Positions 30,631 through 64,000 of a DNA stretch of 64,000 nucleotides are shown here, piece after piece (the first letter of the stretch is position 1; every line of letters begins with the position of its first letter). Made by a program: the position numbers and the translations under genes. The notes beneath the pieces are model-generated. The model was not told the DNA's origin. It saw nothing but the letters and a program-made list of their open reading frames with translations, and made no database searches. Source of the DNA: an uncultured bacterium (GTDB taxonomy: Bacteria; Omnitrophota; Omnitrophia; Omnitrophales; Abzuiibacteriaceae); the NCBI GenBank assembly GCA_964387845.1, contig CAYLXA010000006.1:135040-199039 (forward strand). The letters run 5' to 3'.

Positions 30631-31379
30631 AAAAAATCTTCATATGCCTTGTATTTTTTATGTTACTGGCAGCGGAACGGTCTGCGGCTGAGGTCCACAA
30701 TTTTGAGCAGTCGTTTGCTCAGGCCAACACAGCTTATCGCGATGGAAATTACAAAGAAGCTTTATCGGTTTATCAAAATTTAGCGAAGCAGATGCAAGAA
30801 GCGGATATTTTTTACAATTTGGGGAACGCGGCGTTCAAAACCAAAGAGCTCGGCCTCGCAATCACGAGTTACGAGCGTGCCCGCCGTCTGGATCCGCGAA
30901 ATCCCGATATTTTAGAAAACCTGAAGCTTGCCAAAAGCCTTGTGGAATACCGCGTGGAAGACAAGCGCAGCTGGTATCATCAGAAAACCGTCGAGCTTCT
31001 GGAATCTGTCCGGTTTGAGGAACTGTTGGCAGTTTCGCTTTCGGTTTATTTGATTCTAGCCGTTTTGGTTTTGGTCAGAATTGCATGGAGACAGCAGCCG
31101 GTTTTAACGGATTTTTCAGTTTTGATACTTTGGGTATTTTTGATTGTTTCGATTCCGACTGCTGCCAAATTTTACAAAATGAAATTTCAACAAAAAGCAA
31201 TTGTGACCAGCGCGCAAGTCAACGCGCGTTTCGCGCCGTCTGACCGGGACAAGGTGGCTTTTCGCCTGACGGAAGGCATTTCGGCGGATGTGGAGGATCA
31301 GGTGGGTGATTGGTACCGCATTGCGCTTGTGAGCGGCGACACCGGCTGGGTTCAGGGAAGTGAAATTGCAATCATATGA
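30627..31379 (+). CDS. BatE-like protein (TPR repeats, TM segments, C-terminal SH3b domain)
   Basis: Signal peptide, TPR ('[16 protein letters not shown]...'), two TM helices, and a C-terminal SH3b-like '[21 protein letters not shown]'. Confidence 0.55.
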
Positions 31380-42431: not shown

Positions 42432-44507
42432 ATGGCACCCTTTTTTAGATTTGGCAAAGCCGCTCAGCCCAAGAAAGAATATGACATTACTCTTTTCCCG
42501 ATTTTCACGGGATTGAGCCAAGCTGAGATTAAGATGGTCGAGGAGAAAATCCGCCTCGTAGAGCTCAAGAAAGGCGAGTGCGCGTATCAGAAAGGCGAGG
42601 CGGCAAGCGCCTTTTACGTGATCTTAACCGGACGTTTTCAAATTCTTCGTGAAAACGGCGAGGTGATCAATCACTTACACCATGGTGATTATTTCGGCGA
42701 AACTTCAATCATCACGGATCATCCGCACAGCGCAACGGTTCAGGCGAAAAATGATTCGATTGTGCTCAAGATCGAAAAGAATGATTTTTTGTGGCTCTTA
42801 AAACGTATTCCGGCACTATCACTTCAAATCAGCCGCACGTTGGGGCACCGGTTAACTTCCAATATGGCCGGCGAAGAACTGGAAGGCCAATCCAAAATCC
42901 TCTCAATTTATCATGCGCAGCCGCGGATCGGTAATTCAACGTTCGCCGTCCGTTTGGCTGCATCGCTTGCATTTGAGATGAAGAAAAAAGTGATCGTGGT
43001 TGATTTGAGCCAGATTCATGCCGAAGGGCGGTCGGTTTCTCGAACCCGGCCGCATGCGCGTTCTTATTCTCTTGCGTCTCATGGTTTGCCAAGCGCGCAG
43101 TCGCTCGACCCGTTCATTCTTAAAAAAGACGGGCCTTTTGATTTTTTGAACGTCTCAAACCATGTGGAACTCGAAAAGGCCGAACGCCAGTTGGCACATT
43201 TATTGTCTTACTTGCTGTCACGCTATCACTACATCCTGATTGATTTACCAGCCGAATCATCCGGGCTCGGGCCTAAGGCTATTCAACAATCCGACTTGTT
43301 ATATTTTTTAGTGGATTCGGGCGAAAAGGAAACACAAAAGACTCAAAACATCATTTATCATTTCAAAGAGACATTCAGCCTCAACGATAACGACATCCGC
43401 TTGGTTCTGGTAGAAAGTAAGGATGCCAAAAGAATTTTTTCTTCCAATGTCGCGACTAAGCAATTTTATTCATATCCTGTTTTTGCGACACTGCCGCATG
43501 TTTCGGGAATGCCGTCGCCGAGCGAGACTAATTTAAAAGAGCCGCTTCCCGGCGATGCGGGAAAAGCTTATTCAAAGGTTATTCGGTTTTTAGCCCGTGA
43601 GGTAACCGGGACTTCGGTGGGGCTTGTGCTTGGAAGCGGCGCTGCGTTTGGTTTTGCACACATCGGTGTTTTGAAAGCGCTGGAGGAAGCAGGCATTGAA
43701 ATTGATATTTTAGGCGGATGCAGCATGGGCTCGTTGATCGGCGGTATGTGGGCGCTCGGCATCACAACGGATGAGCTGGTCAAAATTGCGACTGACCTGA
43801 ACCCGAAGAATGTTTTTTTTAAATTAATCGGGCTTCAGGACCTATCCATCGCCCACCGCGGGTTCTTTAAAGGCGACCAGGTGACGGAATTTTTGCGGGA
43901 ACACATCGGAAATGCGTCTTTTAGGGATGTGAAAGTTCCGATAAAAGTAATGGCAGCGGACTTGGCAAACGGTAATCCGGTGGTTTTAGATGAAGGGTCG
44001 CTCTTGGCGGCAATTCGCGCCAGTATTTCGATTCCCGGAATTTTCCGTCCGTTTCAGATCGGGAACCGGTATTTAATGGACGGCGGCGTGGTGGATCCGC
44101 TTCCGGTCCAGATGCTCCGGCGGTACGGCGCTAAAAAAGTAATTGCCGTGAATGTGCTGCAATCGCCGGATGACCATGCGAACCGGCTTGAAATCCTCCA
44201 GAGAAAAGATGAAAAGACAAATGAAATTATTCAAAATAAAAGCATCTTCGTCCGACATTTATATGAATACCGAAAAGACTTTATGGATAAACAAACGGCC
44301 AATATCTTCAACGTGGTCATGAAGGCCATTCAATTTATGGAGTTTGAAATGGCGGAAAATTCCGAACTGCACGCCGATGTGGTTCTGCGGCCGATCGTGA
44401 CGGATGCGCACTGGGCCGAGTTTTATCACGCGGAAAAATTTATCCGCAGGGGCGAAGACGAAACCTTGAAGGCGATGGATGAAATTAAGCGGATGATGAG
44501 CGAGTAA
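42432..44507 (+). CDS. cyclic nucleotide-binding domain / patatin-like phospholipase (NTE-like)
   Basis: An N-terminal cNMP-binding fold ('GDYFGETS') and a C-terminal patatin domain with oxyanion loop 'LGSGAAFGFAHIG', serine 'GCSMGS' and 'DGGVVDPLP' (Asp of the dyad). Confidence 0.75.
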   Translation: MAPFFRFGKAAQPKKEYDITLFPIFTGLSQAEIKMVEEKIRLVELKKGECAYQKGEAASAFYVILTGRFQILRENGEVINHLHHGDYFGETSIITDHPHSATVQAKNDSIVLKIEKNDFLWLLKRIPALSLQISRTLGHRLTSNMAGEELEGQSKILSIYHAQPRIGNSTFAVRLAASLAFEMKKKVIVVDLSQIHAEGRSVSRTRPHARSYSLASHGLPSAQSLDPFILKKDGPFDFLNVSNHVELEKAERQLAHLLSYLLSRYHYILIDLPAESSGLGPKAIQQSDLLYFLVDSGEKETQKTQNIIYHFKETFSLNDNDIRLVLVESKDAKRIFSSNVATKQFYSYPVFATLPHVSGMPSPSETNLKEPLPGDAGKAYSKVIRFLAREVTGTSVGLVLGSGAAFGFAHIGVLKALEEAGIEIDILGGCSMGSLIGGMWALGITTDELVKIATDLNPKNVFFKLIGLQDLSIAHRGFFKGDQVTEFLREHIGNASFRDVKVPIKVMAADLANGNPVVLDEGSLLAAIRASISIPGIFRPFQIGNRYLMDGGVVDPLPVQMLRRYGAKKVIAVNVLQSPDDHANRLEILQRKDEKTNEIIQNKSIFVRHLYEYRKDFMDKQTANIFNVVMKAIQFMEFEMAENSELHADVVLRPIVTDAHWAEFYHAEKFIRRGEDETLKAMDEIKRMMSE

Positions 44508-47852: not shown

Positions 47853-48386
47853 ATGAAGTTATTCCGCATAAAATCTATCGGTTTATCAGTCCTTGTTTTA
47901 GCTGTTTTGGCGAGCTACGGCTTCACTTTTGATTTTCAACAATGGGGCAAGAATCAGCAGGAGAATACCGCTCAAAACGGTGAACCAGCGGGTTCCGGAC
48001 AAAAAGTAGTTGCGGCTAATGTTAAAAGGCCCGTAACGCCTTCGTTGGCGCAGCCGGTGGCGGATACCGAAATTGTCGAAATCCAAAATCAGATTCAACA
48101 AATTACCGAACATACCAAAGTCGTTGAGCAGCAAAGCGCTGCAGACCGTGCCGCACTTCAAAAAGTTTTGCAGCAAGTTCAAATCCAGAAAAAGCTTGTT
48201 GATACATTGAAGGTGCCGAAACAACCGGTTCCGGGCGATGCGTTGAATACCGACGAAATTATCCGGCAGGCAAAATTGCGTCTTATTGCCGAAGATGTCC
48301 GCCGGACGCAGGAAGTGCTGCGGACGTCTAAAGTTGTTACTCCCGTTCCAAAACCTGTCCAAACAGTTAAAACCAGTGATCGGTAA
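47853..48386 (+). CDS. hypothetical secreted Gln-rich coiled-coil protein
   Basis: Signal peptide and a Q/V-rich low-complexity region. It sits inside the fatty-acid locus. Confidence 0.35.
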   Translation: MKLFRIKSIGLSVLVLAVLASYGFTFDFQQWGKNQQENTAQNGEPAGSGQKVVAANVKRPVTPSLAQPVADTEIVEIQNQIQQITEHTKVVEQQSAADRAALQKVLQQVQIQKKLVDTLKVPKQPVPGDALNTDEIIRQAKLRLIAEDVRRTQEVLRTSKVVTPVPKPVQTVKTSDR

Positions 48387-51103: not shown

Positions 51104-51243
51104 TGAAACCAATATTGAAGTTAGCAGTAGTAGTTTTGCTTTTGGGTATGTTGGCTGGATGCGGCGAAACATTCCGCGGTATCGGAAAAGACACATCCAG
51201 GATTTGGTACGGCACCAAAACAATTTTTGTTAGTCAAGAATAA
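51103..51243 (+). CDS. entericidin A/B-like micro-lipoprotein (46 aa)
   Basis: Not in the ORF track (<60 aa). GGAGG RBS. ATG overlaps the upstream TGA. Lipobox 'LAGC' followed by 'GETFRGIGKD', resembling EcnA/EcnB. Confidence 0.45.
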   Translation: MKPILKLAVVVLLLGMLAGCGETFRGIGKDTSRIWYGTKTIFVSQE

Positions 51244-51253
51244 CGAGGCCCCA

Positions 51254-51910
51254 TTGTTACACCGATTAATTTCATGCGTGGTAATCATATCGGTCTTGAT
51301 TTCAGGCTGCGTGCAATACAAGCGCCCGCCGATGATGATCAAAGTGCCGAGCTACTACGACAATCAAATCTCGCTCAAAGATTTGACGCTGGTTGCTGAT
51401 CCTTACATTGAACGCGCGAAGATCGAGCATTTATTTAACACCAATTTGCTTGAAAAAGGTTTTCTTGCGATCCAGCTGATTGCTTTCAATGACGGAGACG
51501 GCGTTTTTGACATGTCGCGTTCTGCAGTCGTTTTAGTGCGTGACGATGGGATTGTTTTCCCGCCGGTTCCGCCCAAACAGGTAAGCAAGAAGGTCTTGCG
51601 TCGCACATCGCTCCGGATGTTGGGGTGGGGATTCGCCGGACTTATCGTTTTGAGCATTCCGCTGTCGCTGGCTGCGGGCGTTGATTCTCGGCGCGCCAAT
51701 CAGGGAATCCGTCGCACCCTTAAAGAGAATGTGCTGAGCTCTCACGAAATCGGCGCCCGTGAAGTTGTAAGTGGTTTTTACTTTTTCAAGATTGGAAAGT
51801 CGCATGGCCATAGCCAGGGCTCGCTTGCGCATCAGTACCGGTTCAAAATTGATCGATTGTTAGAGGTTGACTCCGGAGTAGAATACGAGTTTAATATCGG
51901 GATAAATTAA
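51254..51910 (+). CDS. hypothetical lipoprotein
   Basis: A TTG start gives 'MLHRLISCVVIISVLISGC' (lipobox LISGC). The ORF track extends it to 51227. Confidence 0.4.
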   Translation: MLHRLISCVVIISVLISGCVQYKRPPMMIKVPSYYDNQISLKDLTLVADPYIERAKIEHLFNTNLLEKGFLAIQLIAFNDGDGVFDMSRSAVVLVRDDGIVFPPVPPKQVSKKVLRRTSLRMLGWGFAGLIVLSIPLSLAAGVDSRRANQGIRRTLKENVLSSHEIGAREVVSGFYFFKIGKSHGHSQGSLAHQYRFKIDRLLEVDSGVEYEFNIGIN

Positions 51911-51928: not shown

Positions 51929-52001
51929 GGGCCAGTAGCTCAGCTGGGAGAGCGCTACATTCGCATTGTAGAGGTCACGAGTTCAATCCTCGTCTGGTCC
52001 A
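51929..52001 (+). tRNA. tRNA-Ala (anticodon CGC)
   Basis: Manual cloverleaf: acceptor GGGCCAG/CTGGTCC with a G3:U70 pair, D-arm GCTC-AGCTGGGA-GAGC, anticodon stem CTACA/TGTAG, loop TTCGCAT, T-arm ACGAG-TTCAATC-CTCGT, discriminator A. CCA is not encoded. Confidence 0.85.
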
Positions 52002-52008
52002 AATTTCT

Positions 52009-52292
52009 GAAGCCGGTAGCTCAGCCCTCACGCTACCATGAATATTCACGTATTATTTTAATGAAGCGTGAGGGTAGTCCTGATTTCTAATGAATAAATG
52101 ATTGTCATTTATTGATGAAAATCAGGGCAGCTGGGAGAGCGCTACATTCGTATTGTAGAGGTCAGGACTCATTTTCATTGAGGGATCCAGACGGTCAATA
52201 GGAAATGAGTTCAGCTCCTGAGCCTGATCAAGAATTCCTTAGTCGATTTTTACAGTAGCTCAGGGGCGGGGGTTCGGTCCCCCTTCGGTCCA
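52009..52292 (+). other. tRNA-like mosaic / pseudo-tRNA region with nested perfect hairpin insertions
   Basis: It contains a 5' tRNA fragment (GCCGGTAGCTCAG), a D-loop-to-variable-loop copy almost identical to the tRNA-Ala but with anticodon loop TTCGTAT, a third GTAGCTCAG copy, and a T-arm/3'-end-like GGGGGTTCGGTCCCCCTTCGGTCCA. Two inserts with perfect 8-10-bp inverted repeats interrupt it. Confidence 0.4.
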
Positions 52293-52422
52293 AAGTTAGT
52301 TTTACACCTAAAATTAGCCTCGAATTAATCTCACCTAACGTCTTAAGCTATCAGATAAAAGAGCCGAAACATTATCCTACAAGCTTGGAGTGTCTTTAAG
52401 CGGTTAAACGTAGGATAAAATT

Positions 52423-53295
52423 ATGAGCTACTACCGCATTTTAGGTTTTGATAAAGAGCCTTTTTCCACAAGCCCGGACCCTAACTTTTTTTATCTTACC
52501 CGCGAGCACGAAACGGCGCTGACCAATGTTTTAATCGAGCTCAGATTGCGCCGAGGTTTGTCGGTTGTTTTGGGGGATGTTGGAACCGGCAAAACAAGTC
52601 TTTCCCGGAAATTAGTTCAGTGCTTGCGTGAGCGGAGCGACTTTATATTTCATATTGTTTTAGATCCCTGCTTCGAGAATGAGCATCTTTTCTTAACCTC
52701 CTTAATTCGCAATTTGGGAATCGTTGTCGATCAGCCGCATGAACAAGACCGAACTCTGCTTCGGCACACGGTTTTAGACTTAAAAGAGGCTTTAGAAAAG
52801 TACCTTTATCAGAAGTGCGTTATCGAAAATAAAACAGTGGTTTTGATTGTCGACGAGGCGCAGAAGCTGAGCGAATCCTCGATGGAAATGCTGCGTGTTA
52901 TACTTAATTACGAAACCAACGAAAACAAATTGTTGCAGCTCGTCCTTTTGGGCCAAATGGAGCTTCATGCAAAAATCGTGAATATCCCGAATTTTTGCGA
53001 CCGGATTAGTTTTAAATATTCGCTCAACCCGCTGGATTTCAAGGAAACGAAAGACATGATCCGCTACCGGATCAAGCAAGCAGGCTACAACGCGCCGTCC
53101 CATCTTTTTTTAGATGATGCAATTCAGCTGATTCACAAAGTGTCGCGCGGATATCCGAGAAAAATCACGATGCTGTGCCATCGCTCGCTCAAGAAGCTTG
53201 TGATGCAAAGTAAATGGTCGGTCGACGAAAATTTGGTGCGCGAAATCGTGAATGAAGATATTCATTCCGGCTGGCTTGCGCCGACGCTGCATTAA
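52423..53295 (+). CDS. ExeA/GspA/MshM-like AAA+ ATPase (secretin-associated)
   Basis: N-terminal 'YRILGFDKEPFSTSPDPNFFYLTREHETAL' and Walker A 'GDVGTGKTSL', Walker B 'LIVDEAQ'. It lacks a C-terminal peptidoglycan-binding extension. Confidence 0.7.
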   Translation: MSYYRILGFDKEPFSTSPDPNFFYLTREHETALTNVLIELRLRRGLSVVLGDVGTGKTSLSRKLVQCLRERSDFIFHIVLDPCFENEHLFLTSLIRNLGIVVDQPHEQDRTLLRHTVLDLKEALEKYLYQKCVIENKTVVLIVDEAQKLSESSMEMLRVILNYETNENKLLQLVLLGQMELHAKIVNIPNFCDRISFKYSLNPLDFKETKDMIRYRIKQAGYNAPSHLFLDDAIQLIHKVSRGYPRKITMLCHRSLKKLVMQSKWSVDENLVREIVNEDIHSGWLAPTLH

Positions 53296-53312
53296 GGATT
53301 TTAAAATCCGAT

Positions 53313-54032
53313 ATGGGAGACGAAACACCGGAACAGCAGCTTTTAAAGCTGATTGAGCAGCCGCAAGCGAGCGGTGCTCAGCCGGCGGGGGATTCTAAAG
53401 ATCCCAAAGCGGATACAGCGGCAGCGGCAAAAGCAAAGAAAGGTCTCAATTTTAAGAGCCTGCTGACACCAAGCGGATGGAAAGGCGTTTTGTCCTATGC
53501 AAAGGAACAAGGCGCAACGCTGGCAAAGCAAAAGCCGGAAGTTTACAGTCTCCGAAGTTTTAACCGTTTTTTTCGGATCGCGCTCGGCGCCGGCGGAATA
53601 GTAATGTTTTGTTACATTGCTTATGCGGCTTACGTCATGAATAGTGAGTTTCACGAGCTGTCTGATTCGACACAAAAGGAAATGGCTGATCTGCCCATGT
53701 CGGGCGGGCGAATGTTGGATCCGAATTTTTTTGAGGATATTGCGAAACGGAATATTTTTGCACCGATGGAAAAAAAGCTGGAGCCCGAGCTTGCGCTTGA
53801 GTCTGGAGTTAGCAAAGCGGCTCTCGTTGAAATGGCAAAAGATATCAAGCTAACGGGGATTTCCGTAAATCCAACGGATGAGAGCCGCACATTTTGCATG
53901 ATCGAAGACCTTAAGAAAAACACGACAAGTTTTTTAAAAGTTGGCGACGGAATCGCCGGATTTACGATTAGCAAAATCGGTCCTGACAGCGTTGAGCTCA
54001 AATACCAAAAGGAAGCGATCGAGCTGAGATAA
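53313..54032 (+). CDS. hypothetical bitopic membrane protein, possible PilP/GspC-like secretin partner
   Basis: One TM (FFRIALGAGGIVMFCYIAYAAYVM) and a C-terminal beta-rich '...SFLKVGDGIAGFTISKIGPDSVELKY' resembling secretin-binding HR/PilP domains. It overlaps the secretin start (ATAATGA). Confidence 0.3.
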   Translation: MGDETPEQQLLKLIEQPQASGAQPAGDSKDPKADTAAAAKAKKGLNFKSLLTPSGWKGVLSYAKEQGATLAKQKPEVYSLRSFNRFFRIALGAGGIVMFCYIAYAAYVMNSEFHELSDSTQKEMADLPMSGGRMLDPNFFEDIAKRNIFAPMEKKLEPELALESGVSKAALVEMAKDIKLTGISVNPTDESRTFCMIEDLKKNTTSFLKVGDGIAGFTISKIGPDSVELKYQKEAIELR

Positions 54033-55687
54033 TGAAAAGAACAATTTCACAAAAAAAGCACTTACTCATCATTGTATTAACGGTTATCGTTTCGGCAATG
54101 CCCGTGAGCTCATTCAGCGCAACGTTACCGGCTCCGGAAACAGCACAAGTCGCAGCGCAGCCGTCAGAGAAAGCCGAGCCATTACAGATTGCCTCAGCCG
54201 CATCGACAACCGGGCTTGATAAAACTATTTTTCTAGATCTTCGCGATATCAACGTTATCGATATTCTTAAGTTTTTAGCTTTGGAAGGGGATTTGAATAT
54301 TGTGACGAGCAAAAACGTCCAGGGCCGATCAACGCTGCTTTTGCGTGACGTAAAAATCCGCGATGCGCTCGACATTATTGTTTTATCAAACCAGCTTGCC
54401 TACGACATGAGGAACAGCATTATTTACGTTATGACCGAGCAGGAGTATTTGCAGCTTTACGGAAAAAATTTTAGCGATCAGAAAAAAATCAAAACTCGGG
54501 TTTTGACGTACGCCAAGCCCAGTCACGCGCTTGCGGCGCTGCAATCAATTCAAAGCGCTTTGGGAAAAGTGATCATTGACGAGGAAACCGGCTCGGTGAT
54601 CATGATCGATACTACCGAAAAATTATCCGAAATGGATGCTCTGTTGGATAAGCTGGAAACCAAAGTTGAGACCAAATCCATCACACTTCAATATGCGATG
54701 GCGAAAGATATCGAAACGCAGCTGAAGCCGAAATTAGATGTCAAATCCGTTGGTTCGGTTATTGCGGATGAACGGTCCAATCAAGTGACCATCACAGCGT
54801 ATCCGGGCCGGATGGAAGAAATTGTGGAGCTTGTGCAGTCGTTGGACGCTAAAACCAAAGCGGTTTTGGTGGATGTTCGCATTCTGCAGTTAACCATTAA
54901 TCCGAAGTACGATGCCGGAATCGAGTGGGAAAGAGTATTTACGAACAGTAAGAACGAACTTTTCAAAAGCCTCGATTTCAACCATGCATTTCCGATCGCT
55001 TCAACAGTTTCATCCAGCGCGGCTCTGGGCTCGGTCGGCCAATACACGATCGGAAACTTAACGACGGATGAATTTACGGCCGAATTAAGATTTCTAAAGC
55101 AAATCGAGCGCACCAACGTTGTTGCCAGTCCGCGGATGATGATTCTGGATCGCCAAGAAGCGAAGATTAATATCGGTGACCGGATTCCGTATGTTATTAC
55201 CACAACAACCGGAACGGGAACGAACGTGTCGGTTAGTGAGGACATTCAATTTATTGACGTTGGCCTTAATCTTGTTGTGACGCCGGTTATTAATGACGAG
55301 GGGTATGTGACGATGAAAATTCGTCCGGAAATTTCAAGCCGCACGGGAACGCTTACAACACCCACAGATAACGCAATCCCGATTGTTAATACAACGTTTA
55401 TCGAAACCAATATCGTTGTAAAGGATGGAGTCACCATTATCTTGGGCGGCCTCAGGCGGGATGAATTAACCGAATCAAACAAAGGCGTCCCGTATTTGAT
55501 GGATGTGCCCTTCATCGGCAACGCGTTTAAAAGCAGGGCTGAAACAACGCGAAAAACGGAGATTGTTATTTTCATCACGCCCAAAATTGTCAGCGGAACT
55601 GAAACAATGGCGTGGCAAAATCCGCCTTTTAAACCGGCAAAGTTAGAGATGATTCCACAGGCGCAGAAAAACAAAAAAATATCATGA
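54032..55687 (+). CDS. secretin (GspD/PilQ/MshL family outer-membrane channel)
   Basis: Signal peptide, N-domains, and a C-terminal secretin core ('VVASPRMMILDRQEAKINIGDRIPY', 'VVTPVINDEGYVTMKIRPEIS', 'IILGGL...VPYLMDVPFIGNAF...EIVIFITPKIV'). Confidence 0.8.
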   Translation: MKRTISQKKHLLIIVLTVIVSAMPVSSFSATLPAPETAQVAAQPSEKAEPLQIASAASTTGLDKTIFLDLRDINVIDILKFLALEGDLNIVTSKNVQGRSTLLLRDVKIRDALDIIVLSNQLAYDMRNSIIYVMTEQEYLQLYGKNFSDQKKIKTRVLTYAKPSHALAALQSIQSALGKVIIDEETGSVIMIDTTEKLSEMDALLDKLETKVETKSITLQYAMAKDIETQLKPKLDVKSVGSVIADERSNQVTITAYPGRMEEIVELVQSLDAKTKAVLVDVRILQLTINPKYDAGIEWERVFTNSKNELFKSLDFNHAFPIASTVSSSAALGSVGQYTIGNLTTDEFTAELRFLKQIERTNVVASPRMMILDRQEAKINIGDRIPYVITTTTGTGTNVSVSEDIQFIDVGLNLVVTPVINDEGYVTMKIRPEISSRTGTLTTPTDNAIPIVNTTFIETNIVVKDGVTIILGGLRRDELTESNKGVPYLMDVPFIGNAFKSRAETTRKTEIVIFITPKIVSGTETMAWQNPPFKPAKLEMIPQAQKNKKIS

Positions 55688-56691
55688 AAGAAAATAATAC
55701 CAAGTTTTTAATACAAGCACTCACCAGAATGGCTCTGATTTTATTAATCGCTACAGGCGCGGCCCGTCCCGGCTCGGCATTTTGGCCGTTTGATACCGGT
55801 GAAGAAAAACAAAGCGAAGAGTTTAGTGCTCCGACAGCCTCACTTCCGACACCCGAACAGAAAAGGGAAGAATCGCTCAAGATTGATACGATTCTAAGCA
55901 CGCTAAACGAGTCCCTGGAAGAAAACAAAAAACTCCGGACCGATGCGGAAAACGCGCAAGAGCAGCTGAACCGATCCTCAATCGAGAACAACGTACTTCG
56001 AAGCCAATTGCGCACATTGCAAGCAGAAGCCGATTCGTACAAAACCGAGCTCACCAAGCACGCAGAAGAAACAAAAAAAAACATTCAAAAGCTTGAGCAG
56101 GAAGTTGGTCGTCTTCAAATTGAGGCCAAAAAAGCAGAAGAGATGAAGGAATTTGCCGAAGAAAGCATGGCCTACACCGAAGCGGAAAATCAAAAGGTGA
56201 GAAAGCTGCTTGAACAATCTATTCTTGAAAGCGAACGGGACACATACGTGAAGCTGATTTCGGAGTCGGAGATAAAGGCGAATCGAGCTGCGGAAAAGCT
56301 GATGACAGCAAAGCGCCAGAATGAACGCATGAGATCCGAACTGGCTTCGGCTTATTATAATTTGGGCAATATGCTGGCCGGGTCGGCGCAATATCGGAGC
56401 GCTTTAACGCAATACAAAAAGGCGCTCAAACTTAACCCAAATGATGCGTGGACGCATTACAATTCGGCCATTATTTATGATTATTATTTAAACAATAAAG
56501 AAAAATCGCTCGCACACTACAAGAAATATTTAAGCTTAGAACCTGCTGAAAAAGAGATCAATAAAGTGCGCGAGCGCGTTTTAGAAATGGAATTACTGAA
56601 TCCTGTCACGCCCGGCCAGCCGCTCAAGTCTGATTTTGACAAATATCAAAAGGATTTGAACAAGCCCTACGTCATCAAGGCAAACGGTTAA
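55684..56691 (+). CDS. secreted coiled-coil / TPR-repeat protein (MshN-like position)
   Basis: Signal peptide, a long E/K/Q-rich coiled coil, and C-terminal TPRs ('AYYNLGNMLAGSAQYRSALTQYKKALKLNPNDAWTHYNSAIIY'). ATGA overlap with the secretin gene. Confidence 0.5.
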   Translation: MKENNTKFLIQALTRMALILLIATGAARPGSAFWPFDTGEEKQSEEFSAPTASLPTPEQKREESLKIDTILSTLNESLEENKKLRTDAENAQEQLNRSSIENNVLRSQLRTLQAEADSYKTELTKHAEETKKNIQKLEQEVGRLQIEAKKAEEMKEFAEESMAYTEAENQKVRKLLEQSILESERDTYVKLISESEIKANRAAEKLMTAKRQNERMRSELASAYYNLGNMLAGSAQYRSALTQYKKALKLNPNDAWTHYNSAIIYDYYLNNKEKSLAHYKKYLSLEPAEKEINKVRERVLEMELLNPVTPGQPLKSDFDKYQKDLNKPYVIKANG

Positions 56692-56772
56692 TTTTTTTAA
56701 CCCACACCCGGCCTTACACCTAAAGCCACATTCTAAAGCATTTTTTTAAGATATTTTTATCTGATAAAAAAA

Positions 56773-56801
56773 TTGCATTGAATTTCAGGTTATGATACTA
56801 T
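56773..56801 (+). promoter_or_regulatory. putative sigma70-type promoter (TTGCAT-17 nt-TACTAT) upstream of the FGE-like paralog pair
   Basis: A hexamer match with 17-nt spacing in the 247-bp AT-rich gap. A GNRA hairpin CCTGCC-GAAA-GGCGGG (56884-56899) lies between the putative promoter and the ATG at 56939. Confidence 0.3.
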
Positions 56802-56938
56802 TTTTTTGTTGTCCCATAACCCTAAATTAAACTGCTGAATTAACATATGGCGATTGGGAAATTTCTGACTTGAAAAAGGCAAACCTGCCGAAAGGCGGGG
56901 ACGCAAAACCGAAGTTCTAAATCTCATCAAGGAGAGAC

Positions 56939-58726
56939 ATGAAGGCTGGGTTACCAAGCTGCTTGCGCAATGCGCACACCATGCGTATTGACGCTCAAAT
57001 AAATTGCAAATTTTTCTTCTATGCGATCAGTCTTTTCGTCTTCCTTTTTGGCGCGTCTCCTAAAACCGTTTGGGCCAACAACCTCAGCATTTCAAACGTC
57101 ACACTGACAAGCCAGGATTCCGCAAACGACACCGTCGCGATTCAGTTTGATATTTCGTGGGACAATTCATGGCGGAACCAGACCAATTGGGATGCGGTTT
57201 GGATATTTATTAAATACACAACAGAAACCTCAACGCCGCAGCGATGGTTTCATGCAATTCTACGCAAGACTTCCGCAGCAGCATCCCAGACAAATCCTTC
57301 CGGATATTCTCAAGGAAGCGGAACTGGTCTGGACATTCTTTTGCCGGATGATAATACGGGTGCGGATACCGGTGTTTATGGCGCGTTTCTTTACCGCTCA
57401 GAGATCGGAACTGGCAGCGTTTCAACCACCAGCGTGAAGCTTTTGTGGGATTATGGCGAAAACGGCTTGGCAGATACCGCGACACCGATTGTGCAAGTAT
57501 TCGGCATCGAAATGGTTTATGTTCCACAGGCGTATTTTGTAGCCGGCGATTCCACTAACTCAGCCAGTAATCCGCCGGGCGGATTTGTGGACGGCGGAAG
57601 CGGTACCTATGCTGCTTACACAGTGAGCAGCGAAACTCAGATTGGGTTAGGATCTCCGACGACTGGATGGATTCAATCGCGCTCCGGCATGTCGCCCGCG
57701 GATGATTTTTCAAGCGCTGCTCACAAAAATCTCCCGATTGCATATCCAAAAGGCTACAACGCGTTTTACATGATGAAATATGAACTGACACAAGGTCAAT
57801 ACGCCGAATTTTTAAACACGCTGGAACGTAAAGGCCAAGTCAACTTAGTCGGTGCTACCGTGTCGGCTGATACGATTGCAAATTATTATGTCATGAGCGC
57901 CGAATCTCAATTATCAAGAAGCAACCGAAATACGATTACAGCTCCTTCGTTTGGAAACGGCAGTATCAATCCTATTGCGTTTTCGGTCTCAAGGCCTTAC
58001 CGGGCTATGAACTATCTTGCTTGGATGGATTTGGCGGCCTATGCCGATTGGGCTGCTTTGCGCCCGATGTCTGAGTTGGAGTATGAGAAGGCGGCGCGCG
58101 GTTTTTATGGCTATCAAGCTCCATTACCTGCTTTAAGTTTGGGATTTGCTTGGGGAACGACCGATTTGGTAATTGCAACGACTCCGAATGCATCGGAAGA
58201 TAGTGGAACGGAAGGAATCAACGGAAATGCAGCTTACGGTAATTATACCTACGGCGCTGGCGATGGTTCAACGGGTCCGCTCCGTGTGGGCATTTTCGCA
58301 AGCGGAACCGCGACGGCTACTCGCCCGCTGAGCGGTGCCGGCTTTTACGGCGCGATGGAGCTCTCGGGGAATGTCGCAGAACAGGTTGCGTCCATAACAG
58401 ATACGCTGGCTGCCAACATCCGCGGCGGCAGGGATTTTGACGGATCACATGGCAACGGCACAGTGGTGACTGGTTCTGCGTGTTCTTGGGTCGGGCGGGC
58501 CGACGTGAAGCAATGGCCGGGGTCGTTAACGACATTTTCAGATGGTAACTGCAGCGGCGGCGGAACGGTTCGGCTCATCTATTCACGCGGCGCTATCCGG
58601 CGCGGTGGCTCGTGGAGCAGTGTATCAGCGCGGCTGCAGCTTTCAGACCGCCTAGATTCAGGAAGCGTGCCGAGTTTTACGCGTTCCAGCGCGCATGGCG
58701 GCCGGTTGGTGAGGACTGCGCCATGA
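56939..58726 (+). CDS. secreted protein with N-terminal conserved domain and C-terminal non-catalytic FGE-sulfatase-like (SUMF1/GldJ-type) domain, paralog 1
   Basis: AAGGAGAGA RBS and a signal peptide. 'ELTQGQYAEFLNT', 'RPYRAMNYLAWMDLAAYADWAALRPMSELEYEKAARG' and 'GGRLVRTAP' follow the FGE-sulfatase fold pattern, but no Cys pair is present. Confidence 0.6.
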   Translation: MKAGLPSCLRNAHTMRIDAQINCKFFFYAISLFVFLFGASPKTVWANNLSISNVTLTSQDSANDTVAIQFDISWDNSWRNQTNWDAVWIFIKYTTETSTPQRWFHAILRKTSAAASQTNPSGYSQGSGTGLDILLPDDNTGADTGVYGAFLYRSEIGTGSVSTTSVKLLWDYGENGLADTATPIVQVFGIEMVYVPQAYFVAGDSTNSASNPPGGFVDGGSGTYAAYTVSSETQIGLGSPTTGWIQSRSGMSPADDFSSAAHKNLPIAYPKGYNAFYMMKYELTQGQYAEFLNTLERKGQVNLVGATVSADTIANYYVMSAESQLSRSNRNTITAPSFGNGSINPIAFSVSRPYRAMNYLAWMDLAAYADWAALRPMSELEYEKAARGFYGYQAPLPALSLGFAWGTTDLVIATTPNASEDSGTEGINGNAAYGNYTYGAGDGSTGPLRVGIFASGTATATRPLSGAGFYGAMELSGNVAEQVASITDTLAANIRGGRDFDGSHGNGTVVTGSACSWVGRADVKQWPGSLTTFSDGNCSGGGTVRLIYSRGAIRRGGSWSSVSARLQLSDRLDSGSVPSFTRSSAHGGRLVRTAP

Positions 58727-60408
58727 TGAGGCAAATATTACTGCCGTTTTCTATGTTTGTTTTTTTAGGTTTTCAGGCGTCCTACCTGCACGCTAACAAT
58801 TTGAACATTTCAAACGCTAAAATTGCAAGCCAGGATACTTCGAATGACACCTTGACCATCCAATTCGATATCAGTTGGGAAAACTCATGGCGCGATGGAG
58901 AAAATTTTGACGCAGTTTGGGTTTTTATAAAATACAGCACGCAGGTGGATCATTGGATTTCCACTGAGCAGCCGACTGGGTGGCAGCACGCAGTTTTAAA
59001 ATCATCAGGAACAAATCCAAGCGGATATTCTCAAGGATCCGGAACTGCGCTGGACATTGTGGTGCCGAGTGACCGGCGCGGCTTTTTTCTGCAGCGCTCC
59101 AGTACCGGCGCGGTAGGTACGGTGAACACCACAAGTATTAAAGTTTTATGGAATTACGCAGAAAATTCTGTGTCGGACACAGAAGCCAATTCTGCTTACA
59201 CCCATATCAAAGTATTTGGAATTGAAATGGTTTATATTCCGCAGGCCGGTTTTTACACTGGAGATGGTAGTGATGGTCTTAATGGGGAATTTGAGTTCGG
59301 GGGCTCGACGGCGTCAAGGCCGGCGTCGGTCAATAGTGAGCAAGAGGTTGTGTTTGGAACGGGTACTTTTTCGAATCAATGGTATTACAACACTGATTTG
59401 TCAGGGGATGACTACACATCCGGGACTATCTTCACATTAGCTGAAAGTTTCCCAAAAGGCTTTCAGGCGTTTTACGCCATGAAATACGAAATTACGCAGG
59501 GCCAGTACGTCGAATTCTTAAACACATTGCAGAGAAGCGCTCAAAAGAGCCGGGTGGCAAGTGATCCTGTTAATGCAATTCCGAATTATTATGTGATGAG
59601 CGCCGAATCTTTATTGACTCGCAGTGACCGTAACACGATTACAGCGCCTTCTACGGGCAATGGCTCCTATCATCCTGTCAAGTTTTACGCCCAAAGGCCT
59701 TACCGCGCGATGAATTATATGAGCTGGATGGACCTGGCGGCATTCGCTGATTGGGCGGCTCTTCGGCCGATGTCGGAGCTCGAGTATGAAAAAATAGCAC
59801 GGGGCCCATTGTATCCGGTGGATGGCGAGTATTCTTGGGGAAGTACGGTCGTTTCGTTTGTGGATATAAACGGGGTTGGTGATGAGCTAGGCACAGAAAA
59901 CTTGGATGTGGGCAAATCACCAACGCCTGCCGCCAATTACAGCAACACGGCTTTTGCAGGGGGCGACACCGGCACAGGCCCGTGGCGTGTGGGGATTGTG
60001 AGCGGCGCCCCTCCTGAGCTTACTCTTTATGACCGCGCCAACAATGGAATGGGTTACTACGGGAATGCCGATTTAACCGGCAATGTCTGGGAGCGGGCCG
60101 TCACGGTTGGGAATTCGGCGGGGCGGAATTTTGCGGGTACGCATGGAGATGGAAAGCTTATATATAGCAGCAGCGATACAACCTACATTAATTATTTCGG
60201 AAACGCGACCAACTTGGATTGGCCCGGCATGGATACGACCGACATCAATAGGGGTATTACGGGTGCGCATGGAAGCGGGTTTCGAGGTGGCGCTTGGACC
60301 ACAACGTCGCTCAATTCATTACAAGTTTCAAATCGCGCAGAAGCCGCGCGGGTAGATACCACGCGCGGTTCGTCGTATGGTGGGCGCTTGGTCAGGACAG
60401 CGCCGTAA
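58723..60408 (+). CDS. secreted protein with non-catalytic FGE-sulfatase-like domain, paralog 2
   Basis: ATGATGA overlap with paralog 1. It shows the same architecture ('ANNLNISNAKIASQDTSNDTLTIQFDISWENSWR', '...RPMSELEYEKIARG', '...GGRLVRTAP'). Confidence 0.6.
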   Translation: MMRQILLPFSMFVFLGFQASYLHANNLNISNAKIASQDTSNDTLTIQFDISWENSWRDGENFDAVWVFIKYSTQVDHWISTEQPTGWQHAVLKSSGTNPSGYSQGSGTALDIVVPSDRRGFFLQRSSTGAVGTVNTTSIKVLWNYAENSVSDTEANSAYTHIKVFGIEMVYIPQAGFYTGDGSDGLNGEFEFGGSTASRPASVNSEQEVVFGTGTFSNQWYYNTDLSGDDYTSGTIFTLAESFPKGFQAFYAMKYEITQGQYVEFLNTLQRSAQKSRVASDPVNAIPNYYVMSAESLLTRSDRNTITAPSTGNGSYHPVKFYAQRPYRAMNYMSWMDLAAFADWAALRPMSELEYEKIARGPLYPVDGEYSWGSTVVSFVDINGVGDELGTENLDVGKSPTPAANYSNTAFAGGDTGTGPWRVGIVSGAPPELTLYDRANNGMGYYGNADLTGNVWERAVTVGNSAGRNFAGTHGDGKLIYSSSDTTYINYFGNATNLDWPGMDTTDINRGITGAHGSGFRGGAWTTTSLNSLQVSNRAEAARVDTTRGSSYGGRLVRTAP

Positions 60409-60615
60409 ATTTTTTTAGAAAACCCCGGCCTTTAGCTTTGGAGAGGGTTGAAGGCAGGATGGAAAGTAAAAAAATCGTAACCTCTGGCCCCAGTCCGGAG
60501 GAAGCGAAAGCAAGACCCAATTGACACCGGCTTTGGAGAGGAGGCGTTTAAAAACGCTTTGAGTAGTCGTCCCAGTTTAAAAAGGAAAATTATAGGTCGT
60601 CCCAATAACGCCTGG

Positions 60616-63600
60616 TTGAAGAGATTAGCTTGGCTGCTGATCTTGACACAGGCACTTTCTGCGCCTTATCAAGCCCGTCTTGAAGCGGCTTACTATGGCG
60701 GCGGCAGCTACTCAGGCGATGATGTTGTCCAGGTCACCCAAGCGCAGTATATGGGCGGTTCCTATGCGGGTTATTCATCTGCAACCAGCTCTGCCACATC
60801 CGTCGGCGCCAACAAACTGGCTTTTGCCATTACGCCTCCAACCAGCTCGGTCAATCAAGCCTTCACGGCAACTGTTCAGGTCCAAGATGCCAGTGGCGCC
60901 GTAGTTTCCACAGCAGAGAATTCTGTAACCGTAGCGCTATCAAGCAATCCGACGAGCGCCACCTTGGGTGGTACTTTGACCGCCCCCGCTTCCTCCGGTA
61001 CGGCAACCTTCAATACGCTTTACATTAATCAACCCGGCACATACACATTATCGGCCATGGCAAGCGGCCTCACATCGGCAACTTCATCGTCATTTAGTAT
61101 TGTTTCGGGAGAGTTTAGGGTTCAGGGCTCGCTCGGTTACGCTGCGTCGAGCAATGCATACTATGTCAATTGCTGGATTGAAAACATTTCAGGCACGATT
61201 CTGACGGGCCCGACCTCTTGCGCAGCGGTAGTTTATGCGCCCGATGGATCAACCCACGCCACGTTGACGACCGTTAATTTTGGAAGCCCGGATTCTGACG
61301 GTGTTTTTCGTACAACCGCATGGGATCCGGGCGCTAATTATTTGGATGCCTATACAGCCCGGTTGACTGTCGTCTATAACAGCGCAAGCTACAGTGCCGT
61401 TATTGGTTTAAATCCAGCGCTCAACCGAGGCATTGATGAAATTTACACATCAACCTCAGGAATCAGTGATATCGCAAGCGATGTCACGGATATCGCAGCC
61501 GCAGTCGGCGTTGGTCAAGCGCAGACGGTTTGGCAGAAGGCCGATAGCATCCTCACCTCCATCAGCAAAGCCAACTGGGATGATTTGAAAGTTCTTACCG
61601 AAGCCGGAATTAATTGGGCGGACGTCAATAACCAGAGCCGGGCCGGGATCAACTGGGACGACCTGCGCTCTCTGACCAAGGCCGGCATCAACTGGAACGA
61701 CATCATGAAGTTCAGCCTCTCGGGAATCAATTGGGATGACTTGGTGAAACTCACCAAAGCCGGAATCAACTGGAACGATTTCGGCACGCTCACGAAATCG
61801 GGCGTTAACTGGGACGACCTCAATAGAATGACCAAGGCCGGCATCAACTGGACGGACATTGCCGTATTGAGTTTGAAGGGTGTTAACTGGGCGGACATCT
61901 ATACTTTGTCACGTTCCGGCGTAAACTGGGATGATATCAAAGCGCTCTCCAAAGCAGGTGTCAACTGGTCTGACATCGGCCGTCTCTCCAAATCAGGCGT
62001 TAACTGGGACGATTTTAGCAAGCTTTCTAAGGCCGGTATCAACTGGTCCGACATCGGGCGTTTGTCAAAGTCAGGCGTTAACTGGGATGATTTAAAGGTG
62101 TTGAGCAAGGCAGGTGTTTCGTGGGCCTCGCTCGGTTATGAAGTGACTTGCGGCGCTGCGATTGATACGGATGGGGTCAGCTACATTTATACGGGTCTAC
62201 GGAGGAACGGGGCGCCGGCGCCGTTCACGACGGACTGCGAGTCGATGGCAGTTGCGGATGATATTCAAATTTCAGTACTGAGTGCTGATGCAGGTTCTAC
62301 GGTAGACACGATTGACGATAACACGGGTACGGGGATTGACAGTTCGACGTGCCGGTATGAAACAGTCAATCAATATATCCAAACTCATTTAACGGAAGAT
62401 TACGTGATTAGTTGTTATGTTGTGTTGAATGGAATTGGATATGAAGGCCTGACCACTTATAGTCCGCAAGCCCATTATGTCGCCACTGCAGTGAATTGGA
62501 CAGATATCGGCCTTTTGGCGGATGCCGGCATCAATTGGGCGGACATCGGTCGGCTCTCCAAGTCGGGCGTCAACTGGGATGATTTGAAAGTATTTTCAAA
62601 GGCGGGTGTCAATTGGTCCGACATCGGCCGTCTCTCTAAGTCGGGGGTCAATTGGGACGATATTGGCAAACTTTCCGCCGCCGGCATCAACTGGTCTGAC
62701 ATCGGCCGCCTCTCCAAATCCGGCGTCAATTGGGACGATTTGCGTGCACTCACGAAAGCCGGGGTCAATTGGACCGATATAAAAGCACTGGCCGCGGCGG
62801 GCAATTATCGGTTTGGCGGATATTTTACATCGTTTAGCCATGTTTCGCCGTCGGCTACGGGCGGTACGTTTGCGGTTTATTTTGAGCGCAATGGATCGAT
62901 CGTGCCTCCGGCCAGTTGGTGTTCGGCAGCCACCTTCACGGTGACTAGCGGAAGCTGTGGCTCGTTTGGCTTATTCCCTTACGATTGCTCGAATGCGTGT
63001 TGCTATGATGTGGATTCGTGTAGCTCACAGCCTACCAGCACGGAAGTATCCTTAAGCTATGGCGGTCGAAGCTATTCTGGTCAAGTACGGTTTGATGTGC
63101 TGGGAACTGCAGGGGTCAACTGGAATGATATACAGGCGTTCTCCAAATCCGGTATTAACTGGACGGATATCGGCCGCCTTTCCAAATCCGGTGTCAATTG
63201 GGATGACCTGAAAGCGCTTTCCAAAACCGGCATTAATTGGACGGATATCGGCCGCCTCTCCAAATCCGGCGTCAATTGGGATGATTTTGGGAAATTATCA
63301 AAAGCGGGAATTAATTGGAGCGATCTCGGACGTCTCTCGAAATCCGGTATTAATTGGGATGATTTGCAAGTTCTTACAAAGTCAGCCATTAACTGGACGG
63401 ATCTGGCGGTGATGACAAAAGCTGGGAGTAACTGGATGGACAATGTCAACTGGATGAATTTAGCCGCTCTTACAAAATCCGGGGTCAATTGGACCGACAT
63501 CAAAATCATGAGCGATACCAATATTAACTGGGATGGCATGAAGGCGCTTTCAGAAGGCGGGGTCAATTGGACGGATATCGGTGTATTGACAAAATCAGCG

Positions 63601-64000
63601 ATTAACTGGGATGATTTAAAAACGCTCTCTAAAACAGGTGTCAATTGGGACGACTTAAAGTCTCTCTCTCGGGCCGGCGTTAACTGGACGGACATCGGAA
63701 AAATGAGTAAATCCGGCGTCAATTGGGATGATCTCAATAAACTCTCCAAGGCCGGGGTGAATTGGCAAGGCATTGAGACCTTGTCAAAAACCGGCATCAA
63801 TTGGACGGACTTAGGGGCTCTGACAAAAGCTGGCATTAACTGGAATGATCTTCTCTCACTCAGTAAAACAGGCGTTAATTGGGATGATCTCTCAAGGCTC
63901 TCCAAAGCCGGTGTCAATTGGGATGACTTGAATAAACTCAGCAAGGCCGGTGTTAATTGGGATGATTTGAATAAACTCTCTAAGGCCGGGGTCAATTGGC
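60616..64000 (+). CDS. giant secreted repeat protein (3'-truncated by the window), with 11-residue G(V/I)NW(S/D/T)D(I/L)xxLSK(S/A) tandem repeats
   Basis: My own frame-1 translation is open from 60481 to the window end, which is why it is absent from the ORF track. Inferred TTG start 60616 gives 'MKRLAWLLILTQALSA|PYQA' (signal-peptide-like). There is a ~320-aa N-terminal Ser/Thr/Ala-rich region, then three repeat arrays separated by Cys-containing inserts. The start codon is uncertain. Confidence 0.6.
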   Translation, partial: MKRLAWLLILTQALSAPYQARLEAAYYGGGSYSGDDVVQVTQAQYMGGSYAGYSSATSSATSVGANKLAFAITPPTSSVNQAFTATVQVQDASGAVVSTAENSVTVALSSNPTSATLGGTLTAPASSGTATFNTLYINQPGTYTLSAMASGLTSATSSSFSIVSGEFRVQGSLGYAASSNAYYVNCWIENISGTILTGPTSCAAVVYAPDGSTHATLTTVNFGSPDSDGVFRTTAWDPGANYLDAYTARLTVVYNSASYSAVIGLNPALNRGIDEIYTSTSGISDIASDVTDIAAAVGVGQAQTVWQKADSILTSISKANWDDLKVLTEAGINWADVNNQSRAGINWDDLRSLTKAGINWNDIMKFSLSGINWDDLVKLTKAGINWNDFGTLTKSGVNWDDLNRMTKAGINWTDIAVLSLKGVNWADIYTLSRSGVNWDDIKALSKAGVNWSDIGRLSKSGVNWDDFSKLSKAGINWSDIGRLSKSGVNWDDLKVLSKAGVSWASLGYEVTCGAAIDTDGVSYIYTGLRRNGAPAPFTTDCESMAVADDIQISVLSADAGSTVDTIDDNTGTGIDSSTCRYETVNQYIQTHLTEDYVISCYVVLNGIGYEGLTTYSPQAHYVATAVNWTDIGLLADAGINWADIGRLSKSGVNWDDLKVFSKAGVNWSDIGRLSKSGVNWDDIGKLSAAGINWSDIGRLSKSGVNWDDLRALTKAGVNWTDIKALAAAGNYRFGGYFTSFSHVSPSATGGTFAVYFERNGSIVPPASWCSAATFTVTSGSCGSFGLFPYDCSNACCYDVDSCSSQPTSTEVSLSYGGRSYSGQVRFDVLGTAGVNWNDIQAFSKSGINWTDIGRLSKSGVNWDDLKALSKTGINWTDIGRLSKSGVNWDDFGKLSKAGINWSDLGRLSKSGINWDDLQVLTKSAINWTDLAVMTKAGSNWMDNVNWMNLAALTKSGVNWTDIKIMSDTNINWDGMKALSEGGVNWTDIGVLTKSAINWDDLKTLSKTGVNWDDLKSLSRAGVNWTDIGKMSKSGVNWDDLNKLSKAGVNWQGIETLSKTGINWTDLGALTKAGINWNDLLSLSKTGVNWDDLSRLSKAGVNWDDLNKLSKAGVNWDDLNKLSKAGVNW
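61567..62125 (+). repeat. in-frame 33-bp tandem repeat array 1 (~17 units) inside the giant protein gene
   Basis: Units such as GGCGTTAACTGGGACGATTTTAGCAAGCTTTCTAAGGCC translate to G-V/I-N-W-x-D-I/L-x-x-L-S/T-K-A/S. Confidence 0.8.
62488..62805 (+). repeat. in-frame 33-bp tandem repeat array 2 (~9-10 units)
   Basis: The same unit, e.g. 'AGINWADIGRLSKSGVNWDDLKVFSKAGVNWSDIGRLSKS'. Confidence 0.8.
63101..64000 (+). repeat. in-frame 33-bp tandem repeat array 3 (>=27 units, continues past the window)
   Basis: 'GVNWNDIQAFSKSGINWTDIGRLSKSGVNWDDLKALSKTGINWTDIGRLSKS...' up to the window end. Confidence 0.8.

Follow-up and report, generated by a model that had tools for sequence, protein, structure and literature searches.

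We describe here a tandem pair of genes, ORF1 and ORF2 (ORF, open reading frame), in a stretch of 64,000 nucleotides (the window) from a contig of the Candidatus Omnitrophota, which are uncultured, ultra-small and probably predatory or episymbiotic bacteria. The two genes encode proteins with signal peptides that carry the fold of the formylglycine-generating enzyme (FGE) without its active-site cysteine pair. The start codon of ORF1 lies inside a cyclic di-GMP (c-di-GMP) riboswitch aptamer, and the pair stands between the gene of a PilQ/GspD-type secretin and that of a giant repeat protein (Table 1).

A tandem pair of FGE-fold proteins

The first-pass annotation of the window, made from the letters alone, described two tandem paralogs of ~595 aa with shared N- and C-terminal regions. 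The tandem arrangement, the shared regions and all of the quoted sequence motifs were borne out. BLASTP aligned the two proteins over their full length at 45% identity (E 1e-152), far beyond chance. The size was correct for ORF1 (595 aa) but not for ORF2. In a mechanical ORF list the longest open frame of ORF2 runs from GTG 58612 to 60408 (598 aa), whereas homologs and gene callers place the start at ATG 58723, giving a protein of 561 aa. A strong Shine-Dalgarno (SD) sequence, AAGGAG (56929-56934), lies 4 nt 5′ of the ORF1 ATG. The overlap of the two genes was also seen as first reported: the stop codon of ORF1 (TGA, 58724-58726) and the start codon of ORF2 share an ATGA within 'ATGATGA'. The contrast drawn earlier between a Gly/Ser-rich and an acidic central segment proved to be slight (Gly plus Ser, 23 of 80 residues versus 21 of 78; Asp plus Glu, 5 versus 10). 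The nearest related genome also has two copies, and in a rough neighbor-joining tree its first copy pairs with ORF1 and its second with ORF2. The duplication is, therefore, older than the split between the two genomes, in keeping with the old duplication originally proposed. Elsewhere in the tree, lineages carry either one copy or copies that were duplicated independently, as at locus L022.

Both C-terminal regions matched the Pfam FGE-sulfatase family (PF03781), with 32.7 bits for ORF1 and 31.5 bits for ORF2 against a cut-off of 23.3. The match in the pair spans only profile positions 33-136 of 255; a paralog, P0065, matches positions 35-255. A profile built from an alignment of 109 full-length homologs (A1) found human SUMF1 at E 1.3e-10 and also matched the first FGE strand, MVxIPxGxF. 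The AlphaFold2 model of ORF1, for which A1 served as input, was confident (pLDDT 86.5, pTM 0.88), and the C-terminal domain has the FGE-type, C-type-lectin-like fold, so that the earlier assignment to this fold stands. Each protein has a Sec-type signal peptide with AxA-like cleavage before NNL, and A-x-A followed by NNL is the family consensus. Structural modelling of the N-terminal domain, which the first reading had recommended, yielded an all-beta sandwich with weak structural neighbours only, resembling carbohydrate-binding modules (CBM) or Fn3 domains. This sandwich matched no Pfam or NCBIfam family, and a search of the BFVD viral structure library returned beta-sandwich noise only.

The C-terminal domain is homologous to SUMF1 and retains the motifs MVxIPxGxF, RLPTE.EWE and GG(S)W...R...G.R, but it lacks the Cys336/Cys341 copper site and has large insertions in addition to the extra N-terminal domain. 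In the profile alignment, 'GGSYMC336HRSYC341' of SUMF1 aligns with 'RGGSWSS...', which places Ser561 of ORF1 and Thr527 of ORF2 at the Cys336 position; Cys341 sits in a SUMF1-specific insertion of three residues. ORF2 contains no cysteine. ORF1 has C8 and C23 in the signal-peptide region and C515 and C538 in a nonconserved insertion, the latter two being the sole cysteines of the mature protein, and none of the columns across the 109 homologs of A1 holds a conserved cysteine. The active-site cysteine pair of catalytic FGE is thus absent, as the first reading had held, and on their sequences ORF1 and ORF2 cannot be formylglycine-generating enzymes. No sulfatase gene was found among the window ORFs scanned.

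One could envision that the pair are enzymes of another kind, which use the FGE fold without cysteines, as has been proposed for PvdO, CalU17 and ToxD, and modify the giant protein or a small molecule in the periplasm. We consider this very unlikely. Besides the missing cysteine pair, there is no DinB-like domain with a His triad of the EgtB/OvoA type, since the N-terminal domain is an all-beta sandwich and PF03781 was the only Pfam match at E<=1. The invariant residues are mostly Gly, Pro and Trp together with Arg and Glu that are structural throughout the superfamily. Furthermore, the FGE active-site region is the very region that is hypermutated in paralogs by diversity-generating retroelements (DGRs; see below), which indicates that it tolerates random residues. 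Binding accordingly fits the pair better than catalysis, and this part of the earlier description of them as binding or structural modules can be kept.

The family is large and lies mostly within Omnitrophota. ORF1 has 2,798 scored homologs, nearly all of which cover >90% of its length, and the N-terminal domain alone is found in at least 1,724 clusters at 50% identity, nearly always at the N-terminus of proteins of 500-600 aa. Named homologs come from Candidatus Omnitrophota and bear the label 'SUMF1/EgtB/PvdO family nonheme iron enzyme', which is almost certainly wrong for these proteins. The LepA protein of the window is 70-77% identical to named Omnitrophota proteins and 91% identical to a protein on a 439-kb JGI contig that also bears the closest orthologs of the pair.

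Table 1. Positions of the gene pair, its parts, the aptamer and the neighbouring cluster genes in the window
Feature	Position	Strand	Description
ORF1	56939-58726	+	595 aa; FGE-fold protein, first of the pair
ORF1 signal peptide	to ~residue 46	+	Sec-type
ORF1 N-terminal beta-sandwich	~47-189 (57077-57505)	+	all-beta in the AlphaFold2 model
ORF1 FGE-fold domain	~190-595 (57506-58723)	+	PF03781, A1 profile, model
ORF1 segment equivalent to the variable region	58601-58711	+	R555-V591 ('RGGSW...GGRLV'); matches paralog variable region and FGE Cys336/Cys341 site
ORF2 (= P0004)	58723-60408	+	561 aa, MMRQ... start at ATG 58723; no cysteine; ORF1-type architecture
ORF2 signal peptide	MMRQILLPFSMFVFLGFQASYLHA	+	Sec-type, without Cys
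ORF2 segment equivalent to the variable region	~60283-60393	+	by alignment
c-di-GMP-I (GEMM-I) aptamer	56868-56958	+	Rfam RF01051, 76.4 bits (gathering 35), E 3e-13, model 1-87 of 87
ExeA/MshM-like AAA ATPase	52423-53295	+	Pfam AAA_22 E 5e-19; NCBIfam TIGR03015 169.7 bits, below cut-off
GspC-like small protein	53313-54032	+	weak: Pfam T2SSC 23 bits; NCBIfam GspC_delta E 8e-8, below cut-off
PilQ/GspD-type secretin	54032-55687	+	Pfam Secretin E 1e-48 and Secretin_N; NCBIfam PilQ 245.9 bits, just below cut-off
Coiled-coil and tetratricopeptide repeat (TPR) protein	55684-56691	+	TPR_1/2/11; weak NCBIfam matches to TPR lipoproteins GltE, Tgl, PilW
Giant repeat-protein gene, 5′ part	60559-64000	+	extends beyond the window end

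A c-di-GMP-I aptamer across the ORF1 start codon

The aptamer contains both the SD sequence and the ATG of ORF1, and residues 1-7 of ORF1 are encoded by aptamer sequence. This explains the odd extension that precedes the real signal peptide of ORF1. The first hairpin of the aptamer (CCUGCC/GGCGGG) carries a GAAA cap, AAGGAG occupies the apical loop and the 3′ strand of the second hairpin, and the start codon of ORF1 is formed by the 'AUG' in CUAA...AUGA, the conserved tetraloop-receptor motif. A start codon placed in the tetraloop receptor would constitute an unusually compact expression platform.

RF01051 aptamers were also found in loci L002, L011, L013 and L018. The aptamer ATG opens a full-length ORF (586-613 aa) in the window, L002, L011 and L013, and the ATG of L018 is set in the same context. 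Translation of aptamer sequence thus gives the N-terminal residues M[KT][AV][GW]LP, a motif with which eight retrieved family proteins begin. When three loci were picked solely by the N-terminus MT[AV]WLP, RF01051 was found over the start codon in all three. At seven loci the 3′ end of the aptamer falls exactly 19 nt past the A of the ATG, a register seen in L002, L011, L013, L209, L210 and L211. Compensatory changes were observed in 8 of the 19 pairs, 98.9% of the cells pair, and the covariation score was 0.558 compared with 0.241 in shuffled alignments, none of 500 shuffles reaching the observed value. Membership in RF01051 is thus backed both by a full-length covariance match and by compensatory support for the helices. 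The DGR target at L008 has an aptamer as well, but there it is followed by terminator-like hairpins. A scan of 52000-60800 for promoters and terminators gave counts no higher than background.

The sequence 'GGCAAAC' is retained in all aptamer copies, and we take its first G to be G20 in Vc2 numbering, the base that would mark a ligand of the c-di-GMP type as opposed to 3′,3′-cGAMP. G20 and C92 are contacts of the ligand (PMC5888326). The ligand-bound fold would be expected to hide the SD sequence and the AUG and so reduce ORF1 translation (an OFF switch), and translation of ORF2 might then drop along with it by coupling through the ATGA overlap.

In Vibrio cholerae, the Vc1 riboswitch places gbpA, which encodes a secreted N-acetylglucosamine-binding adhesin exported by the type II secretion system, under c-di-GMP-I control. 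There, as in the window, a GEMM-I aptamer lies upstream of a secreted, non-enzymatic binder tied to secretin-dependent export. The two cases differ in the protein fold and in that the start codon is inside the aptamer in the window.

Probable fixed relatives of DGR targets

P0065, a full-length homolog (40% identical), is followed by genes for bAvd and then a reverse transcriptase (RT). The last 142 nt of P0065 recur between Avd and RT with 85% identity. Where the two copies differ, the downstream one has an adenine, a pattern characteristic of a DGR. When 94 family genes in 83 loci were scanned systematically for template-repeat/variable-region (TR/VR) pairs, three such pairs were identified beside family members, with RT and Avd present. 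The mismatches lie at template adenines in 15 of 17 cases at L008, 9 of 10 at L027 and 15 of 18 at L061. At a fourth locus, Avd lies at the end of the contig. The segment 'GNW...SDR...GGRCV' constitutes the variable region, and the VRs of P0065, L027 and L061 align with R555-V591 of ORF1. In the window pair, the equivalent segment likewise takes the C-terminal position on the C-type-lectin/FGE fold. In the neighbor-joining tree the DGR targets are spread over several clades, one of them being nested in the large clade to which every secretin-linked copy belongs.

L008 (5157-16493) has a complete DGR cassette adjoining the family member. The order is the c-di-GMP-I aptamer with its terminator-like hairpins, a 52-aa ORF with an AAGC repeat run, the target, an ORF with a fragment of a MutS_I domain, bAvd, TR, RT and a gene for a 2428-aa protein with immunoglobulin (Ig)-like repeats.

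Among DGR targets, FGE-sulfatase/CLec1 domains form the largest class, and TvpA acts as a binder rather than a catalyst (PMC5758913). Proteins of the TvpA type (FGE-sulfatase/CLec1; Treponema denticola TvpA, PDB 2y3c) are the nearest functional relatives of the pair. Unlike them, ORF1 and ORF2 lack a nearby TR, RT and Avd, their VR-equivalent segment is conserved between orthologs, they add the family-specific N-terminal beta-sandwich, and they stand in tandem, under a riboswitch, within a secretin/giant-gene cluster.

Because full-length paralogs are DGR targets and because DGRs can act on remote targets (PMC5758913), ORF1 and ORF2 might be active targets of a DGR encoded elsewhere, beyond the 64 kb searched, in the other ~135 kb of the contig or the remaining genome. 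This is the least probable of the explanations that we weighed. No TR, RT or Avd was detected in the 64-kb window by BLASTN, an adenine-tolerant regular expression or tblastn with RT and Avd queries, and no TR was found within 10 kb of any secretin-linked ortholog. The VR-equivalent segment was not hypervariable between close relatives. Its 39 residues are 69% identical to those of the nearest relative, compared with 58% for the rest of ORF1 and 70% for the rest of ORF2, and it is, therefore, at least as conserved between orthologs as the remainder of the protein. Synonymous differences between ORF1 and ORF2 run the length of the segment, and where P0065 has variable columns the codons of the pair do not conform to NNY, the type that AAY templates would be expected to produce. 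ORF1 and ORF2 are probably undiversified themselves, as static relatives of DGR targets.

The secretin cluster and a proposed role for the pair

The pair is part of a conserved gene order, ExeA/MshM-like ATPase, GspC-like protein, PilQ-like secretin, coiled-coil/TPR protein, one or two FGE-like genes and giant ORF, that was found in 17 distinct loci of Omnitrophota (the window, L002, L006, L011, L013, L015, L016, L018, L022, L023, L025, L026, L032, L033, L057, L065 and L209). Across related loci the ATPase orthologs, at the matching position, are 53-95% identical and the secretins 41-77%, and the positions of the GspC-like and coiled-coil/TPR genes are conserved. In all related loci whose sequence reaches far enough downstream, a homolog of the giant ORF lies directly 3′ of the FGE-like gene or genes; it always extends past the end of the locus and reaches at least 3318 aa in L013. 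A tRNA-Ala(CGC) gene (51929-52001, +) lies just 5′ of the ATPase gene, and a tRNA at the equivalent place in L002, L011 and L016 indicates that the upstream border of the cluster is conserved. The ORF at 51227-51910 (+; 227 aa), without a match in Pfam or NCBIfam, has its ortholog in L002 at the corresponding position.

The giant protein of the window begins with a signal-peptide-like N-terminus, which is followed by two Ig-like domains and then by at least 40 strict 13-residue repeats (SK[AS]G[VI]NWxD[IL]xxL) in blocks split by spacers of ~120-150 residues. No Pfam or NCBIfam family describes the repeat. Homology searches returned mostly Ig-domain matches and truncated Omnitrophota fragments and yielded no name. 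The AlphaFold2 model of the first 760 residues had a mean pLDDT of 48.9 and was confident for residues 82-290 only. We consider just the two Ig-like domains credible; a helix-turn prediction for the repeats was not trusted at this low confidence.

In two preprints, Omnitrophota giant genes have been reported with secretion loci upstream and genes for c-di-GMP-binding PilZ proteins downstream (West-Roberts et al. 2023, bioRxiv 10.1101/2023.11.21.568195; 10.64898/2026.06.07.730766). The window resembles the system of West-Roberts et al. in having a secretin locus directly 5′ of a very large surface-protein gene of Omnitrophota and in its link to c-di-GMP, which is made there by the PilZ genes and by GGDEF domains. 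The published locus has >10 subunits (GspD/E/F, RcpC and a peptidyl-prolyl isomerase), whereas the module in the window has four genes (secretin, ExeA-like, GspC-like and TPR). FGE-like genes and the riboswitch are mentioned in neither preprint.

The proximity of the secretin raises the possibility that the two proteins are structural ring or scaffold subunits of the adjacent machine, with a repurposed FGE fold like that of PorK/GldK. A likeness to GldJ and GldK, which are lipoproteins of gliding and of the T9SS (type IX secretion system), had been part of the first-pass annotation, and it did not hold up. The pair shares with PorK/GldK and GldJ the fold only. Neither protein has a lipobox, and no GldJ or GldK model of NCBIfam matched at E<=1, the only hit at that threshold being a 13-14 bit match to an unrelated S-layer model. 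The PorK score was no better than those of unrelated FGE-fold proteins. Moreover, no PorL/M/N-like neighbour and no T9SS genes were found in the window, and the host is an omnitrophote with a secretin in place of the T9SS. Many family members have no secretin nearby, and several are diversified by DGRs, which would suit an invariant machine part poorly. ORF1 is fast-evolving as judged by sequence comparison, being only 55% identical to its ortholog when the corresponding values are 91% for LepA and 95% for the ATPase. On these grounds a role as ring subunits is distinctly unlikely.

We think it somewhat probable that ORF1 and ORF2 are exported, non-catalytic binders with a lectin-type fold, static relatives of DGR variable proteins, which are gated by c-di-GMP and serve to recognise or attach to surfaces jointly with the secretin and the giant protein. 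The C-terminal surface would bind a fixed ligand, such as a glycan, a structure on a host or prey surface, or the giant protein itself. The site of action would then be the periplasm or the cell surface, where the pair, in concert with the giant protein of 13-residue repeats and the neighbouring PilQ-like secretin, would provide recognition or attachment for a surface apparatus gated by c-di-GMP. A more far-reaching proposal, which we regard as unlikely, is that the cluster encodes an undescribed c-di-GMP-gated surface organelle of Omnitrophota, in which a dedicated PilQ-like secretin exports or anchors a giant fibre made up of the 13-residue repeats, the riboswitch-controlled FGE-fold lectins are the receptor-binding subunits for host or prey cells, and DGR-diversified paralogs supply variable specificity in other lineages.

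Several points weigh against the proposal of secretin-linked, c-di-GMP-gated binders. Of the 17 secretin-linked loci, 11 lack the riboswitch, and control by c-di-GMP is, therefore, not universal. We infer the OFF direction of the switch from geometry alone. No GspE/F, pilins or PilMNOP were present among the scanned window ORFs; the four-gene secretin module stands alone, so that export of the pair through it is putative. Some family members occur in unrelated contexts, for example in a NiFe-hydrogenase operon. Finally, of the 199 kb of the contig, the search for a DGR covered 64 kb.

In themselves, the fold, the missing cysteines and the class of riboswitch belong to kinds already known. The first-pass annotation had included neither the DGR targets of the family nor the riboswitch nor the gene cluster. 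Four features appear to be undescribed in the literature searched: that proteins of the sandwich-plus-FGE architecture make up a large family with a misleading label, that this family comprises both DGR targets and fixed paralogs, that a start codon is placed within the aptamer, and that the order of secretin, lectin-fold and giant genes is conserved. The locus offers three handles on the role of Omnitrophota giant genes: a ligand-responsive RNA amenable to in vitro tests, a pair of small, soluble candidate binding proteins suited to expression and to screens with glycan arrays or prey cells, and a defined cluster that ties c-di-GMP signalling, a secretin and a giant repeat protein together. 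Moreover, a scaffold that occurs in both DGR-diversified and fixed copies provides a natural comparison for how DGR targets arise.

Beyond the secretin-linked loci, family genes were seen in other surroundings. At 13 of the 31 loci without a secretin link (L071, L047, L041, L066, L088 and eight others), the family gene is flanked by genes encoding T9SS-type C-terminal sorting domains ('NYPNPFNP...'); these genes probably sit in FCB-group genomes. The flanking sorting-domain gene of L071 (11569-14460) also encodes many 'DISxWDVSxVT' repeats. P0105 (L004, 10001-11599) lies on a 1.17-Mb Omnitrophota contig inside a NiFe-hydrogenase/Hyp operon, between NuoF-like and HoxU-like genes, a context unrelated to secretion. 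The long proteins P0265, P0276, P0292 (~1450 aa), P0245 and P0302 either repeat the N-terminal domain two or three times or are fusions of the unit, with CBM9-like, hydrazine-synthase-alpha-middle or cytochrome c domains as partners.

Housekeeping genes make up the rest of the window that was scanned. With these surroundings and no phage genes, an origin of the pair in a prophage or as phage tail fibres was rejected. The ORF at 47853-48386 (+; 177 aa) had no Pfam or NCBIfam match. A 691-aa protein encoded at 42432-44507 (+) combines cyclic-nucleotide-binding, ParA/BcsQ-like AAA_31 and patatin phospholipase domains, and at 28696-31379 (+) genes for a BatD-like protein and then a TPR and SH3 protein, resembling an operon of the Bat/aerotolerance type, lie 3′ of genes for an M48 peptidase and a TPR-peptidase_MA protein.

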